DNA of 64,000 nucleotides from Promethearchaeota archaeon (GTDB taxonomy: Archaea; Asgardarchaeota; Lokiarchaeia; Sigyniarchaeales; SOKP01): contig JAEOUA010000003.1 of the NCBI GenBank assembly GCA_016839555.1, forward strand, positions 340,112 through 404,111, written 5' to 3'. Shown piece after piece: positions 24,864-64,000 of the stretch. Position 1 is the first letter of the stretch. Each line of letters opens with the position of its first letter. The notes under the pieces were generated by a model that saw nothing but the letters and a program-made list of their open reading frames with translations, ran no database searches and was not told the origin of the DNA. The position numbers and the translations under genes were made by a program.

Positions 24864-26303
24864 TCATTGCTCATAGGTATTATGGTACCAATCTTCGAAA
24901 TCTTCGAAGCGGTCAGAATGAAATTCTGTTAGTAAATTGTTATTTGCATCATTTTTAATTTTTTCAAACAATTGGTCGCAAATATCGGGATTTTCTTGTG
25001 CAATATTATTTTGCCAGTTAGGATCTTGTGTAAGATCAAATAATTTCTGTTCTGTTTTATGATTTCCCGTAATTAATGCATATTCATCATCTTTAAAAAG
25101 AGTCCAGAGGGCCATCCCACACGTGATATAATCTCTATCTTCCAAAGCATAATATTTATCATCCAGGAATACAGATAAATCATGACCTTCTAATTTTTTT
25201 GGAATATCTTTGTCAAGAAAGCCAAAAATCGTCGGCAATATGTCAATATCATATATATAAGAACTTTTCACTCGTATTGGACCATTAATTTGTTCTGGGG
25301 GTTTAATCATAAAGGGTATATCTACTAATTCAGGGAACATGTACTGGGGGACCTTTCCCACTGAACCATGTTCGCCGAAATTATGCCCATGATCGCTAAT
25401 AAAGAATATTAGTGAATCATCATACAGATCTAATTGTTTTAACTCATTAATGAATACTCCAAACCAATGATCACAGAGAGAAACTTCTCCAGCATAACAC
25501 GCTTTCATGCTTTCTAATTCCTCTTTAGTGATTAAATCCACACTATTTCCATAAATAGGTTGGATTATTTTATTTCCTAAATAGGATTTATCTTTGTAGA
25601 GCTCATAATATTTATCTGGTGGATCCCAAGGTTCATGCGGGTCAAATTCATCTACTACACATAGATAATTATTAACATTTTTATTTAATTTTGCTGATTC
25701 AACAGCCTTTTGGAACGTTTTTGCTGGCATATAATCTTCTTCTGATTTGTAATATTGGGTATTTTTAAAATATTTCTTAAGTAAGATTTTTTGCAGTTGT
25801 ACTTCATAATAATTTTCTTCCGTTCGTTCAGGGACATGATTTTTAATAATTTCTCTTAATTTTGATTTACTTGCCTTCCATGTTGGTATATATTTATCAT
25901 ATTCATGCCCTCTAATCAGGTGCCATTCATCGAAACCCAAATGGAAATTCATACAGGGTTTATATTGATGATAAGTACTTGTTATAAAAGAACTAATATA
26001 TCCAAAAGCATGTAAATATTCCGAAAGATGCTTTTGATTATGCGGAATGGGAGTCCATCCCGGTGCTTCTACAAAATCATCACTCCTAAAGTTTAAATCT
26101 TTATCAAAAGGAAAGGTTCTTATGCCTGTGTGAATTGCCCTACGTACTGGTATTGTTGGTAAAGCTTCGGGATATGCTTTATCGAATACTAAACAATCAT
26201 TCGCAAATTCATCAAAATTAGGTGTTTGTATCCAATCATTGCCATAGGTCTTTCCGGTGTGGTCCTTTCTAAGAGTATCAAGTATAATAAGAAATATTTT
26301 CAT
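24864..26303 (-). CDS. Sulfatase-like hydrolase (alkaline phosphatase superfamily)
   Basis: LDTLRKDH, TPNFD, PTIPVRRAIHTG, DPHEPW, SDHG. Confidence 0.88.
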   Translation of the reverse strand: MKIFLIILDTLRKDHTGKTYGNDWIQTPNFDEFANDCLVFDKAYPEALPTIPVRRAIHTGIRTFPFDKDLNFRSDDFVEAPGWTPIPHNQKHLSEYLHAFGYISSFITSTYHQYKPCMNFHLGFDEWHLIRGHEYDKYIPTWKASKSKLREIIKNHVPERTEENYYEVQLQKILLKKYFKNTQYYKSEEDYMPAKTFQKAVESAKLNKNVNNYLCVVDEFDPHEPWDPPDKYYELYKDKSYLGNKIIQPIYGNSVDLITKEELESMKACYAGEVSLCDHWFGVFINELKQLDLYDDSLIFFISDHGHNFGEHGSVGKVPQYMFPELVDIPFMIKPPEQINGPIRVKSSYIYDIDILPTIFGFLDKDIPKKLEGHDLSVFLDDKYYALEDRDYITCGMALWTLFKDDEYALITGNHKTEQKLFDLTQDPNWQNNIAQENPDICDQLFEKIKNDANNNLLTEFHSDRFEDFEDWYHNTYEQ

Positions 26304-26445: not shown

Positions 26446-27243
26446 ATGATTATCGAATTATTAGTAATTGGGAATGAAATTCTTATCGGTAAAACGCAAG
26501 ATACTAATTCTAATTGGATTGTTAAAAGAATTGCGAAATACGGGCATAAAACACGGAGAATTACTGTGATTGGAGATGAGATTGAGGAAATTTCTTCAGC
26601 AATTCAAGAAATTTTAAACCGTAAACCAGATATGATTATTACTTGCGGTGGACTTGGCCCCACATTTGATGACATGACTAATGAAGCGGTAGCAAAAGGA
26701 TTAGGACGGAAATTAGTATTAAATGAACATGCTTATAATAGTATTAAAAAAGCATATAAACGAGCTTATGAACAAGGAATTGTAAAACTTGATGGAATGA
26801 CTAAAGAGAGGGAGAAAATGGCATATATGCCTGATGGGTCAACACCACTGCCAAATACTAAGGGAACCGCACCAGGAGTAAAAATAAAGCAAAATAAAAT
26901 TAATATTTATATCTTGCCGGGTGTTCCTAATGAAATGAAAACAATATTTAGAAATGTTATTTTGCCCATTTTAAAGGATAAACAAGGAAAATTCTATCAA
27001 AAAGGATTTATTTTTTCCGGGATTGGAGAATCTCATATCGCTCCGTATGTGACTGAACTCGAGGAGAAATATCCAGATCTCTGGATAAAAACACACCCAC
27101 GAATTGGTCTTTCTGTTGAAGTGGAAATCTCCATCACCTGTTTTGATAAAGACACTTGTGAAGAAAATATTAATAAAGCATTAAAAAAGCTAAAACAGAT
27201 AGTTAAAGAATTAGATGGAAAAATAATTAAACAAAATACTTAA
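26446..27243 (+). CDS. CinA-like molybdopterin-binding domain protein
   Basis: GNEILIGKTQDTNS, GGLGPTFDDMT, GTAPG, LPGVPNEM, GESHIA. Confidence 0.88.
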   Translation: MIIELLVIGNEILIGKTQDTNSNWIVKRIAKYGHKTRRITVIGDEIEEISSAIQEILNRKPDMIITCGGLGPTFDDMTNEAVAKGLGRKLVLNEHAYNSIKKAYKRAYEQGIVKLDGMTKEREKMAYMPDGSTPLPNTKGTAPGVKIKQNKINIYILPGVPNEMKTIFRNVILPILKDKQGKFYQKGFIFSGIGESHIAPYVTELEEKYPDLWIKTHPRIGLSVEVEISITCFDKDTCEENINKALKKLKQIVKELDGKIIKQNT

Positions 27244-27246
27244 AAT

Positions 27247-27319
27247 ATGATGGCACCTCGCAGGTGAAAATTTCAATAAGCAATCGCTTCAAGCGTTTGT
27301 GCTTATATCATTAACATCA
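27247..27319 (-). promoter_or_regulatory. Eukaryote-like SECIS element in the selD 3' UTR
   Basis: Minus strand: ATGA-T, stem ATAAGCA/TGCTTAT, CAAA, ministem CGCT-TGA-AGCG, then T-GA. Closed by TGATG/CATCA. Confidence 0.88.
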
Positions 27320-28351
27320 TTAATAATTTGAAATTTCTATGTTTTCGATTTCTTTAGATATTCTTATTTCTCCCGGTGTTTTATCATCGATTTCACCAAC
27401 GATCCAGTTTGAAATCTTCTTAGTTGAAAGAGCATTCGAAAATTCTTCGACTTTTTCTGAATCAATAGCCATTAACATTCCACCAGCAGTTTCATGTGCT
27501 ATACATTCATCAAAAGCATATCCCAATTCATCCGAAAGATCTTTCGAGAGTTTAATCGAAGGAGTTTTGGTTATTATCCCCGAAAGTTTAGAATGCTGGA
27601 GCATTTCTTTAGCATGCCCAGCAAGACCAAATCCTGTAACATCTGACATTGCATGCACAAACGAAAAGTCATTAAATGAATGGATAGTCCTGATAACATC
27701 TTGATTTGGTGTGGTCATAATTTTTATAGCAATATCAATGGAGTTTTGTAGTTCTGTTCTCGAATAATTTTCTAATAATTCCGGCATATCCTTTAAAATT
27801 CTATAAGCAGCCATTATAGCTTGCAAACCTATAGGTTTTGTAAGGATTAGCTTATCTCCTTTTTTTACTCCACTTTTTCTTATAATTGTATCTTTATGTG
27901 CTATTCCTGAAGCTTCTCCTCCTATTAATGGCCAATCACAATAAATCGTGTGTCCCCCCACTACTTCTGATCCCACTTTATTTTCCATAAAATATTTTAT
28001 CCCCCGAAGAATTCCTTCTGATATATAACTAGGAGTAGTGGTAGTAACTGCTAAAAAAATCAGCATACCACCATTAATATCTAGCACATTCATGGCAAAA
28101 ATATCGTTTGTTACATTGCAAGCTGCTATTTCACCTTGAATTTCTGGCTCATCAACAATAGGGGTAAAAATATCTAAATTTTTCACCAGAACTAATTCCG
28201 TCCCTTTTATGGGAATTACCGCCGCATCATCAATATCACCATATAGCCCCGTTTTAATTAAAAGTTCTTCCAAGTTGGATGCACCTAATTTACATGATCA
28301 TCCATGTATTTTAACCATTGAGGTTAATCTATATTCTTCTTTTGCTTTCAT
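27320..28351 (-). CDS. selD: Selenophosphate synthetase, selenoprotein (Sec18 = TGA at 28300-28298)
   Basis: ATG at 28351 gives MKAKEEYRLTSMVKIHG-TGA-SCKLGASNLEELL, in frame with the track ORF. DDAAV, DIFTPIVD, DIFAM, GGHT, DVTGFGLAGH and ETAGG motifs. Confidence 0.95.
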
Positions 28352-28493
28352 CACCCACAGCCTTCATTCTTTTTAAATTTATGATTTTCCTATTTTAAAG
28401 AATATAAGATTATATAAAATATTAATGTTTTCGATAAATTAATCGAAGAGATCGATAAATAAATAAAGAAATTATTTTATTTGTAAAAAAAAT

Positions 28494-31424
28494 TTATAAA
28501 AGAATAAAATCAATTTTTTTAAATATAACCTTAGGGATATTATGAGCTCCTTTATAAGAGATTTCAAGATTAATTTCAGAAGGTTCCATAGTCTGGCTAT
28601 TATTTTTTATTTCCTTATCAATTTTAAATAGATATTTAAATTTAAAATCATTACCCGCTTTTAAATCATTAAGTTGGAAATATTTGGGGTGGCTTTGATC
28701 TAATAATTTTATATAAGACGGTGATTTAAGAGTAAAAGATAATTCTTTAAAGTCATAATTAGAAGAATTATTTAATCGTAAATTCATTTCAAGATGATTT
28801 CCAATAGTTTTAATTTTTTTAAATAGAGTAGGCTCCTTAAAGTCGGGAAATTCTAAGCCAATTTTCGGACTAATAATTTTTTCATCAATTATTTTTGCAT
28901 CTAATTTATCTTTATCAATATATTTTAATAATAACTCTTTAATTCGTTCTGTCTCTAACTCAATATAGTTTGAAAGAAGTTCAATTGAGATGGGATTCAT
29001 TATGTTAAGATAATGTTTCACCTGAAATAGAAATAATTTCTCATTATTCTTCATAACAAATTTTTTTAATTTATAGATCATTAGTTCTTTAGTTTGTTCC
29101 CATTTTTCAAGAATGGGATTTATATATAAGTTAAATCCATTAGATTTTGGTTTAAATATTTCTTTAGTTTCGATAATATTATCAATCTGTTCTTCAGTTT
29201 TATCAATAAATAGTTTAATCTGTGAGGAATTCATTTCTAAAGTTTTTTTCGCCTGTTTAAAGTTGCCCTTTCTCATTAAAGCATTTAGTTTCAATGTCAG
29301 ATGTTCGAGATTATGATTTAACTTTTTAATTCCATTAATACCATATGTTATTATTTCATTTATATAGGATTGAACTATTTGAAATGTTAATTCATTGCTT
29401 ATGCCATTAATATTATGAATATTTGATAAATCTTCAGAAGATTTAATAGAAAACACGGTTTCAACAATTTTTTGCTTTAATGATTTAATTTTTTTATCTA
29501 TTTTATTTAGATAAATTTGTATGTCTATTTTCACTGAAATCCATTTATTAATAAGATCTTTAAAAAGATCATCAAATTCAATATTATTAATAATAGTTTC
29601 TCTAATATCTATGTCCAATTTAAATAAATTTTTTCGAATTAAGGAAATATAATTAAATTTTTCTTGAAATTCTTGTTCTGAATAAATATCAAGATCTAAA
29701 GCTTGGGACCAGGTATCATCCTTTTTAATATAATCAAATTGGGCTTTTAGAATGGTAATTCGATCCATTAAAACATTAATTTTAGATTGGAGATTTGATA
29801 TATGCTCTTGCTTTTTTTCCTCACAAATAGATGAGAGACTCACTCGGATTAAAGATAATTCATCAATGATTTGTATTTTAGTTTCCTTCCAATCTTCAAT
29901 TAAATCAAAAGCAATTCTCCTATATTGGAAGTTATTTATTCTTTCATTAAATGTATGGATTTTTTTAATAATATCATCATACATTTGATTTAGTTGAATT
30001 TCGGTAGTATTAAACTTGAAATCATTAATATAAGTATTTATTTTTTTTCGAAATTCTGCGGGAATCCTCTGAAAGTTTTCAATTTTTTCTCTTAAAAATG
30101 AAATTTCTCTCGAAATTTTTTCAATAGTACTTTTAATAGATGGGAAATTTGATTCGATTATTTTTAAAGTATATTCGATTTCCTCCTTAACATTTAAGTC
30201 ATGTTCATTTTCCAAGAATTCATTTAATTCTATATATAACCATATCCCAATTTTCTCATCTTGTAAAATATTGATCAATTTTTCAAGTAATTCAACATAT
30301 TGCTTACGTTTTCTCCAATATTTCGATTCCATCTCATATAATATTTTTATAATCTCTTTTTCAATTTCTAATTGATATTCTTTATATAATTGTTTAAAAG
30401 TTATGGCAATTGTTTCCCTTATATTTTCAGAAGGATTATCTAATTCTTTAAAGAGATATGGAAAAATTTGTTTAATATGAGTTTGACATAATTGATATAA
30501 TGCCTCTTCTAAAATATAATTATATGAATCTTTACTAGATTCCGATATTAAATTGATTAAATTCGCCCAAATTTGTTCGAAGTTATTTTCTGCAATAATA
30601 TTCAAGGCATCAATAACTTCATTCTGAATTCCATATTCTTTATTTTTAAGGAAATTAATAATTTTAGGAATAAAAGGAATTATCTCGGATGACTTTTCTT
30701 TGCCAATTTCTCCGAATAACCAGATGATTAACTTTTTTACCCTTGGTTTTTCATTATATAAGAGATTTAATAAAACATAGAAAATTTTTTCTTTTGTCAC
30801 ATAATATTGTCCTAAAAGTTTTAATAATTCTGTTGCTGCTTGAGCAACGTCATCATCCTCATCTCTTAAATTTATTATTACTATTGAGAGAAGAGGTTCT
30901 ATACTTTTGATTTTAGTGTAATCTTGATTAATTAATTTCTTAATAATAGTAATGACGATCAGCTTAACTTTCCAATCATTATCCATTAATTTCTCTGTAA
31001 AATCATCTAAAATTGCTGATAATTTATCAGAATCAATATGAAGAGTTAAAAGTAATTTTCCAATAATTTTAACTGCTAATCGTCGTACAGAATCATCTCG
31101 GTCATATAATCGCAAATCGAATTCATCTAATAAATCTATTAATAAATTAGGCCTATAAATGGAAATCTGATATAAAATCTCGAGAGCAGCCAGCCTAATC
31201 CAAGAATCTTGGTCATTGATTAATCCTCCAATTATTTTAACAGCTTTTAAAGAAATTTTTGGGGATTTATCACATATTAGACTTAAATAATTTAGTGCAT
31301 TATAGAGATTTTCTTGATCATGCTGAGAATGGCAAGTCTCTATTGCTAATAATAAAGCTTTTAAGGCATCGGTGAAATTACCGTCTAAGATCAATTTCTC
31401 AATATTTTCCAATTTCAAATTCAC
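28494..31424 (-). CDS. HEAT-repeat protein with coiled coil, PCI-like segment and C-terminal beta-sandwich
   Basis: DQDSWIRLAAL, DRDDSVRRLAV, DNDWKVK and DEDDDVAQAA HEAT signatures; C-terminal LEMNLRLNN...LNDLKAG..FKFKYLF. Confidence 0.75.
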   Translation of the reverse strand: MNLKLENIEKLILDGNFTDALKALLLAIETCHSQHDQENLYNALNYLSLICDKSPKISLKAVKIIGGLINDQDSWIRLAALEILYQISIYRPNLLIDLLDEFDLRLYDRDDSVRRLAVKIIGKLLLTLHIDSDKLSAILDDFTEKLMDNDWKVKLIVITIIKKLINQDYTKIKSIEPLLSIVIINLRDEDDDVAQAATELLKLLGQYYVTKEKIFYVLLNLLYNEKPRVKKLIIWLFGEIGKEKSSEIIPFIPKIINFLKNKEYGIQNEVIDALNIIAENNFEQIWANLINLISESSKDSYNYILEEALYQLCQTHIKQIFPYLFKELDNPSENIRETIAITFKQLYKEYQLEIEKEIIKILYEMESKYWRKRKQYVELLEKLINILQDEKIGIWLYIELNEFLENEHDLNVKEEIEYTLKIIESNFPSIKSTIEKISREISFLREKIENFQRIPAEFRKKINTYINDFKFNTTEIQLNQMYDDIIKKIHTFNERINNFQYRRIAFDLIEDWKETKIQIIDELSLIRVSLSSICEEKKQEHISNLQSKINVLMDRITILKAQFDYIKKDDTWSQALDLDIYSEQEFQEKFNYISLIRKNLFKLDIDIRETIINNIEFDDLFKDLINKWISVKIDIQIYLNKIDKKIKSLKQKIVETVFSIKSSEDLSNIHNINGISNELTFQIVQSYINEIITYGINGIKKLNHNLEHLTLKLNALMRKGNFKQAKKTLEMNSSQIKLFIDKTEEQIDNIIETKEIFKPKSNGFNLYINPILEKWEQTKELMIYKLKKFVMKNNEKLFLFQVKHYLNIMNPISIELLSNYIELETERIKELLLKYIDKDKLDAKIIDEKIISPKIGLEFPDFKEPTLFKKIKTIGNHLEMNLRLNNSSNYDFKELSFTLKSPSYIKLLDQSHPKYFQLNDLKAGNDFKFKYLFKIDKEIKNNSQTMEPSEINLEISYKGAHNIPKVIFKKIDFILL

Positions 31425-63092: not shown

Positions 63093-64000
63093 ATGCAACC
63101 GATTGGATTCAATAAAGAAAAAGCATCAGCTGTTTTAAAGAAATATGACATAGATGTTTTAATTGCTTCTTCTCCTGTTAATGTATTCTATTTAACAGGC
63201 TTGCCCACTCTACATGTTGCGCCTAATCCCATTTTGTACGTATTATCGAACCAATATCCCAGCCTGGCCTTAGTTAAAAATGATGGAGAAGAAAGCCTAA
63301 TAACTTGGATAACTTATAGAAGTATCGATAATTTTTCCTGGGTTAAAGATGTTCACGGAATAGGGTCTCCAAAAGCGGCAATGGTAACAATTTCTGATAA
63401 AATAAAAGAATGGGAGTTTTCAAATAAAAAAATTGGATATGAATCGCACATGCCCACGTATCAATATCAATATTTAAAGAATGAATTTCCAAATGCCACG
63501 TTTATTAATGGAGATCAAGCTTTTTTAGACATGAGATTAGTTAAATCAGAAGAGGAAGTAAAACGGATTAGAAAATCAACTGAAATTTCTGAAAAGGCAA
63601 TTAAAACAATGATTGAAGAGGCGCATGAAGGAATTACAGATAACGAATTACTTCAGATCGCTCGCCGCACAATCATTAATGAGGGAGCGGAAGGATGGGA
63701 TCACCTAACTATGGGCATAGGTTCATCAGACCCAGAAGCTCCTGGCACAGGTATTCAAATGAAGCCAGGAGATATAACTCGATTTGATATTGGTACTATC
63801 TGGAAGGGATACGTATCAGATGTAAGCAGAGAGGTAGTGATTGGTAAAATTCCAGAAGGAGCTCAAGAAATAATAGAAAGACTAATTCAAGTACAAGAAT
63901 TTTGCGTGGAAAACATCAAACCAGGAGGATATCCAAAAGAGCTATATAAAAATACTATGGATTTCAATAAATCTTTAACAAAATTCGGAAGGTGTTTTAT
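63093..64000 (+). CDS. Xaa-Pro peptidase (M24) family protein, 3' end runs off the window
   Basis: Hand-translated: MQPIGFNKEK...NVFYLTG, MRLVKSEEEV, RFDIGTIWKGYVSDVSR, IKPG. Confidence 0.88.
   Translation, partial: MQPIGFNKEKASAVLKKYDIDVLIASSPVNVFYLTGLPTLHVAPNPILYVLSNQYPSLALVKNDGEESLITWITYRSIDNFSWVKDVHGIGSPKAAMVTISDKIKEWEFSNKKIGYESHMPTYQYQYLKNEFPNATFINGDQAFLDMRLVKSEEEVKRIRKSTEISEKAIKTMIEEAHEGITDNELLQIARRTIINEGAEGWDHLTMGIGSSDPEAPGTGIQMKPGDITRFDIGTIWKGYVSDVSREVVIGKIPEGAQEIIERLIQVQEFCVENIKPGGYPKELYKNTMDFNKSLTKFGRCF

Follow-up and report, generated by a model that had tools for sequence, protein, structure and literature searches.

Selenocysteine (Sec) in selenophosphate synthetase (SelD, SPS) has been described in the Lokiarchaeota. 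The main text of Mariotti et al. (2016, PMC4989117) reports tRNA-Sec, PSTK, SecS, EFsec and a Sec-containing SPS with its own form of SECIS element. According to the main text of Huang, Xiao and Zhang (2024, PMC11227280), Sec-SelD is found in 87.2% of Sec-using Asgard archaea. The selD SECIS is described there as mostly type II and eSECIS-like, with lower-stem pairs of the form G[A/U]G_C[U/A]C. A 2026 review (PMC13188914) counts SelD among 11 archaeal selenoprotein families in its text. Since Sec-SelD of Loki and other Asgard archaea is already published, the selD gene described here is one more case of published biology (Mariotti 2016; Huang 2024) and a correct annotation fix. The statement of the first-pass annotation that Sec-SelD is known from Lokiarchaeota agrees with the main texts of PMC4989117 and PMC11227280, which extend it to Asgard archaea generally. 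The less ordinary part, which goes beyond the published accounts as far as their main texts describe them, is a three-armed SECIS with a conserved third hairpin.

The locus resembles the 'SPS lokiSECIS' of PMC4989117, as its main text presents it, in having a UGA-encoded Sec in SelD, a SECIS just after the stop codon with an AUGA...GA core, an A-rich unpaired run, an extra apical stem and a main stem that falls short of the 9 bp seen in other Loki SECIS elements. That text describes the kink-turn arm only, whereas here a lower stem and a third hairpin (P3) are present as well. The lower-stem pairing GAUG/CAUC matches the G[A/U]G_C[U/A]C given for the Asgard type II eSECIS-like selD element in the main text of PMC11227280. 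P3 fills the 3' side of what is called a 'loop' in that main text, where the word 'hairpin' does not occur and 'junction' occurs only in the title of a reference. With the SelD of Methanococcales and Methanopyrus the locus shares an archaeal Sec-SelD, a 3'-UTR SECIS and the PSTK/SepSecS pathway (main texts of PMC4989117 and PMC11227280). The core differs: in those methanogens it is a GAA_A bulge on a GC-rich stem, while here it is a kink-turn type AUGA...GA. With eukaryotic SEPHS2 it shares Sec at the equivalent catalytic position and a type II SECIS, in which unpaired A residues and a ministem accompany the AUGA...GA quartet. Here the upper stem is far shorter than in eukaryotes, and the eukaryotic SECIS model as described has no third hairpin.

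Reading frame, protein identity and conservation of the in-frame TGA

The window, the whole stretch of 64,000 nt that was analysed, carries selD on the minus strand (Table 1). Gene calling with translation table 11 lists an ORF at 27320..28273 (−) that starts at TTG and encodes 317 residues. The first-pass annotation had followed the frame past this TTG at 28273, through a TGA, to an ATG at 28351 for a total of 343 residues, and translation confirms it. The frame runs from ATG 28351 through TGA 28300–28298 (codon 18) to TAA 27322–27320, and 27320..28351 (−) read with TGA as U gives 343 residues with U18 in K-I-H-G-U-S-C-K-L-G. One codon upstream of the ATG there is an alternative start, GTG 28352–28354, but relatives fit the ATG best. 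The 317-residue product from TTG 28273 does not contain the N-terminal loop that bears Sec and Lys. It is a gene-calling artefact, an annotation error rather than a discovery.

Table 1. Coordinates in the window of the selD gene and of the SECIS element that follows it
Feature	Coordinates	Strand	Remarks
selD coding sequence, 343 codons plus stop, TGA read as Sec	27320..28351	−	SelD family models; AIRS N- and C-terminal domains
Probable ATG start codon	28349..28351	−	Met aligned with start Met of relatives
In-frame TGA, putative Sec codon 18, motif G-U-S-C-K	28298..28300	−	same position in loci of relatives
TTG, start in the ORF list; internal Leu codon of the real gene	28271..28273	−	ORF list compared with extended frame
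TAA stop codon of selD	27320..27322	−	frame translation
Whole SECIS, three-way junction	27248..27319	−	starts right after the stop codon; ends 5 nt before convergent gene end 27243
P1 lower stem, 5' strand (U-GAUG)	27315..27319	−	pairs with 27248–27252
AUGA of SECIS core, kink-turn type quartet, 5' side	27308..27311	−	G and A invariant, U nearly so, in 16 sequences
P2 upper stem, 5' strand, 6 bp	27301..27306	−	helix 2: 97.9% of cells paired, 4/6 pairs changed on both sides
Segment between P2 5' strand and ministem	27296..27300	−	feature named in the text of PMC4989117 and PMC11227280
Apical ministem hairpin (type II feature)	27285..27295	−	helix 3
P2 upper stem, 3' strand	27276..27281	−	covariation
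U-GA-A, 3' side of SECIS core	27272..27275	−	16-sequence alignment
P3 third hairpin, 4–5 bp stem, pentaloop U-G-C-G-A	27254..27266	−	helix 4: 96.9% paired, 3/4 pairs changed on both sides
P1 lower stem, 3' strand (CAUC-A)	27248..27252	−	covariation, RNAalifold

The first-pass annotation had suggested aligning the extended protein to SelD/SPS2. The protein is matched as SelD by family models and by solved structures, and the matches run across U18. The NCBIfam model TIGR00476 (selD) gives 191.7 bits, above its cut-off of 125. With PRK14105 (SelD) the score is 277.3 bits, below the cut-off of 291; residues 4–340 align with profile positions 3–345 of 345, which places the 26 residues preceding the TTG within the SelD family match. 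The two Pfam AIRS domains are both above their cut-offs (PF00586, 40.4 bits; PF02769, 58.3 bits). Six distinct sequences of solved SelD/SEPHS structures match with E values from 1.4e-33 to 4.1e-21; the structures of human SEPHS1 match at E 1.4e-33. In Leishmania SelD (5l16) the Cys of G-C-S-C-K-L is aligned with the U of G-U-S-C-K-L. An alignment of 24 relatives shows no variation at G17, U18, S19, K21, D42, D60, D67, N79, D83 and D237. This alignment was taken from 30 selD loci; L021, L027, L032, L040 and L043 needed other coordinates or have TGA as their final stop codon, L044 runs into a contig end, and these six were set aside. The score of TIGR00476, the 5l16 alignment and the invariant G17, U18, S19 and K21 support a SelD with Sec in the U/C-x-x-K motif, as the first-pass annotation had proposed. 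D42, D60, D67, D83 and D237 align with Asp residues of human SEPHS1 and may be acidic residues of the ATP/metal site. The genome search found no second selD; the sole other match (29% identity, E 1e-10) has no internal stop and is therefore another AIRS-family protein.

The TGA is strictly kept. We searched 41 genomes (the host and 40 relatives at genus, family and order level), and all 37 strong selD matches (E ≤ 7e-64; 35 genomes) hold exactly one internal TGA. The weak matches (E ≥ 1e-12) have no internal TGA and are paralogues, and strong matches were absent from six of the 41 genomes. Across the 30 loci taken from the host and relatives the TGA always comes directly after [H/F]-G; the next residues are S-C-K in 29 loci and S-V-K in one. 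The codons that flank it differ synonymously among these loci (e.g. CAT GGA and CAC GGT), so coding selection acts on the frame across the TGA. All 80 loci from named public MAGs have the TGA as well, within G-U-S-[CV]-K in 78 and G-U-N-C-K in two. The nearest public selD records are mostly labelled as Promethearchaeota or Promethearchaeia MAGs. The sets of 30 and 80 loci overlap and all are kin, so these counts measure conservation and not independent events. No Cys form of SelD was found among the relatives searched. The first-pass annotation had also named a check of reads over the TGA, and this was followed at the level of contigs. Among the Logan contigs of four runs, one run gave a clean piece over the TGA: a 170-base contig (depth 2.9) from a second sample, of the same study as the probable source sample, identical over 28205–28374, in which the TGA is unchanged.

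Two of the genomes (G016 and G019) have two Sec-selD genes each, 1.3–3.3 kb apart on one contig. These pairs fit the multiple selD copies reported for some Loki and Thor genomes in the main text of PMC11227280. In the window, selD is solitary and no operon link with Sec genes is visible. A molybdopterin-binding-domain gene (26446–27243) is convergent with selD, a sulfatase gene (24864–26303) lies farther on, and upstream of selD there is a gene for a 976-residue protein consisting largely of HEAT repeats (28494–31424, −).

The SECIS element and its third hairpin

A eukaryote-like type II SECIS lies directly 3' of the selD stop codon, at 27319–27248 (−). Its apex is made of the 6-bp P2, an unpaired ACAAA run and a ministem of 3–4 bp. 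The P3 stem pairs CACC with GGUG around the loop UGCGA and directly precedes the 3' strand of P1. The alignment covers 16 of the 21 family-level selD 3' UTRs, with L025, L033–L036 and nine order-level loci kept apart. In it, 93.9% of cells are paired and 12 of 19 pairs have changed on both sides. None of 500 shuffles reaches the observed values, and slid partners are 26.6–46.6% paired. RNAalifold without a supplied structure recovers these four helices, shows compensation in 13 of 19 pairs, and adds a fifth P3 pair with seven double changes. The element is the published Asgard/Loki type II kink-turn form known from the main texts cited above, and it would direct Sec insertion as proposed there.

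The five family-level UTRs kept apart (L025 and L033–L036, 5/21) have a type I apex, a 9-bp stem with an 11-nt loop, and retain the lower stem and the third hairpin. The apex thus switches form within the family while the junction stays.

P3 is seen beyond selD. In all eight type I elements of this genome, which were found without reference to P3, it follows the GA at 2–6 nt by eye. Constrained folding gives P3 and a P1-closed junction in seven of them; in the eighth P3 is predicted and a P1 pairing is possible by eye. Among orthologues of a peroxiredoxin-like selenoprotein gene (PrxL) with enough 3'-UTR sequence, P3 is present by eye in 14 of 15. A model built from 14 PrxL elements (P1, P2 and P3) makes 146 matches at E ≤ 0.001 in 32 of the 41 genomes, 145 of them over the whole model, and matches in 24/24 family relatives. 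In 41 model-aligned matches the paired cells are 81.1% for P1, 95.4% for P2 and 89.0% for P3, in an alignment fitted to the model and from a search that favours elements bearing P1 and P3. All 17 pairs have changed on both sides, 0/500 shuffles reach these values, and slid controls give 22.9–50.7%. Two P3 pairs are nearly fixed as C-G (40/41 each). A decoy control with the upper stem held fixed does not discriminate: in this AT-rich DNA, flank pairing is also found at about 15 of 35 other AUGA-stem-GA sites, and the z-scores of the eight true type I elements (−0.44 to −2.49) overlap those of the 35 decoys (−2.53 to +1.75). Across named MAG selD loci, a strict P3 pattern (at least 4 bp, loop with GC[AG]) is found in 57 of 79. 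Three of the loci that it misses (L161, L167 and L172) carry a hairpin in this position whose loop differs, and in L166 the scan halted at an internal TGA.

In the Loki-type SECIS, P3 lies between the kink-turn GA and the lower stem and has a conserved C-C/G-G stem with a loop that in most cases contains G-C-R. The k-junction, which Wang et al. reportedly described in 2014, is said to be a three-way junction built on a kink-turn. The topology of P3, which branches from the non-bulged strand with the G.A helix on one side and the lower helix on the other, possibly fits such a junction by analogy of secondary structure: the third helix of a k-junction likewise interrupts the non-bulged strand where the G.A helix meets the canonical helix. 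The two differ in the several unpaired bases that separate GA from P3 here. We suggest tentatively, and with somewhat more doubt than confidence, that the Loki-type SECIS is a three-way junction, possibly a k-junction, rather than the published two-helix hairpin, and that P3 may be a required recognition element. A P3-like arm is not described in the main texts of PMC4989117, PMC11227280 and PMC13188914, and it may be drawn in their figures or supplements. Titles, abstracts and main texts covered by our literature search contain no description of a three-way-junction or k-junction Asgard SECIS.

According to the main texts cited here, SBP2 is not known from archaea and was not found in Asgard archaea, and no protein that binds the archaeal 3'-UTR SECIS is known. 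With this gap and the conserved stem and loop, P3 may be a candidate docking site for archaeal SelB or for an unknown SECIS-binding factor that replaces SBP2. The conserved third arm offers a concrete, mutable target for asking how archaea read a 3'-UTR SECIS, and it changes the basis for comparing the Asgard element with the eukaryotic one.

Selenocysteine machinery and the reading of the UGA codon

The MAG (12 contigs, 92.45% complete, 6.39% estimated contamination) has its Sec machinery genes outside the window, on other contigs. SepSecS scores 494 bits against a cut-off of 224.85. The tRNA-Sec gene, 188 nt from SepSecS, scores 45.3 bits with the Rfam tRNA-Sec model, under the gathering score of 47. 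SelB is a 472-residue GTPase about 5.4 kb from tRNA-Sec on the opposite strand (237.4 bits, below the cut-off of 242.25), and its domain III (aSelB_III, PF21440) scores 31.7 bits against 19. This spacing is like that in the Lokiarchaeota, where SelB lies about 5–6 kb from tRNA-Sec on the opposite strand (main text of PMC4989117). A KTI12/PSTK-type kinase on contig 4 scores 160.5 bits with the PSTK model, below the cut-off of 290.5. Three of these four machinery genes (tRNA-Sec, PSTK and SelB) thus score under curated cut-offs. Relatives carry the same set.

Folded from its true 5' end, the predicted tRNA-Sec combines acceptor and T stems of 9 and 4 bp with a 6-bp anticodon stem (anticodon UCA), a long (6-bp) variable arm, the discriminator G73 and an encoded CCA. 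The gene (contig 5, about 402240–402362, −) is interrupted in the 5' strand of its D-stem by an insert of 30 bases, which one relative (G005) shares. The 7-bp D-stem with its 4-nt loop forms only with the insert removed, as in the insert-free tRNA-Sec of G001, G003, G004 and G019. ARAGORN calls no tRNA at this locus or in the window; this miss and the Rfam score under the threshold are due to the D-stem insert, which would have to be removed for a functional tRNA-Sec. In G006 an insert of about 29 bases is in the T-loop. The main texts cited here mention only the T-loop position for an archaeal tRNA-Sec intron, with 31 nt in Lokiarchaeota (PMC4989117), unlike the D-stem position here.

The genome search recovers tRNA-Sec, SepSecS, a PSTK-like kinase, SelB and other SECIS-bearing genes, so the machinery whose absence the first-pass annotation had named as evidence against a selenocysteine-encoding organism is present. 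With at least 14 selenoprotein genes, the conclusion that the organism encodes selenocysteine is well supported at the sequence level. TGA is an ordinary stop elsewhere. It ends 185 of 1406 ORFs of at least 300 codons, and the median distance to the next in-frame stop is 6 codons after TGA, 7 after TAA and 7.5 after TAG. TGA is not reassigned in this genome.

From homology, UGA conservation, RNA covariation and the machinery genes we infer Sec insertion and the identity of the factor that reads the SECIS. A ribosome would reach the UGA at 28300–28298, where archaeal SelB would deliver Sec-tRNA(Sec), directed by the 3'-UTR SECIS at 27319–27248, about 990 nt downstream of the UGA. The tRNA(Sec) would first receive Ser; phosphorylation by PSTK would follow, and SepSecS would make the final conversion with selenophosphate from SelD. 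As SepSecS uses the selenophosphate that SelD makes, SelD would depend on its own product.

Substitution of Cys, or of a residue from a near-cognate tRNA, at a Sec UGA occurs in other systems. The UGA of selD could likewise be read through but not, or not only, as Sec, with Cys on tRNA(Sec) or by a near-cognate tRNA, for example when selenium is scarce, the inserted residue here being read from sequence. We consider this improbable, as the genome and its relatives keep the full Sec pathway and a dedicated SECIS, the expected signature of Sec use. It is more improbable still that the TGA is a true stop, with the 317-residue TTG product as the working protein or selD as a pseudogene. The table 11 call and the use of TGA as a normal stop elsewhere would suit a true stop, but the truncated product is without the invariant G-U-S-C-K loop, while in 30/30 loci the 17 codons ahead of the TGA encode a conserved peptide and show synonymous changes. 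The SelD profile covers residues 4–340, a covarying SECIS follows the gene, and the genome has no second selD. An assembly or sequencing error for TGT or TGC, giving a SelD with Cys, has a negligible chance: the genome is a MAG and the site was checked on contigs rather than raw reads, but the same TGA recurs in independent assemblies (37/37 strong matches and 80/80 named MAG loci), the contig from another sample is identical over it, and the relatives searched show no Cys form. The sequence is almost certainly that of a full-length selenophosphate synthetase (SelD/SPS) with Sec as catalytic residue 18.

Other selenoprotein genes of the genome

A search for the AUGA-stem-loop-GA core pattern gave eight further SECIS elements, and a covariance model gave a ninth. 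The genes behind these nine are four HdrA-VhuD pairs (one shared SECIS each), two VhuU genes, the U-x-x-U peroxiredoxin-like gene (PrxL) and two small genes without a Pfam family. Counting selD, the genome has at least 14 selenoprotein genes. Standard gene callers cut all of these at their Sec codons, and Asgard MAG proteomes and metabolic reconstructions therefore lose active-site residues. In its own genome, covariance model R1 recovered five elements at E ≤ 0.001 (six at E ≤ 1) of at least 11, with 150 of 4720 first-look candidates scored. It picked up, on contig 9 at 63219–63302 (+), a second VhuA/VhuU hydrogenase pair that has a SECIS and a Sec codon in D-C-U-L-S-C; the strict pattern had missed this pair.

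One of the small genes, on contig 2 (30232–30600, −), is an ORF of 123 residues that contains a single in-frame TGA (T-U-T-x-x-F-C-G) and has a SECIS of its own. The TGA is kept in 24/24 matches from 15 of the 41 genomes. The protein weakly matches the HesB-like selenoprotein model TIGR01911 (E 0.0012, 19.4 against 66.35 bits).

The other, on contig 7 (6067–6537, +), is a candidate new selenoprotein family of about 153–157 residues with two adjacent in-frame TGA codons in an invariant Q-x-D-x-G-C-U-U. A type I SECIS begins 1 nt after its stop codon. At least two TGA codons are kept in 37 of 38 matches from 26 of the 41 genomes, and about 35 residues after U-U are conserved. The protein has no Pfam family and one insignificant NCBIfam match (E 0.093), and the G-C-U-U motif is absent from the text of the 2026 review (PMC13188914). 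Its predicted structure (pLDDT 83.9) has a beta-grasp fold nearest to sulfur-carrier and SAMP/MoaD/CysO proteins, with middling Z scores of 7.2–5.9, and the C-terminal ends of these proteins fall near G-C-U-U. Genes for a ThiS-family protein and a ferredoxin lie just upstream.
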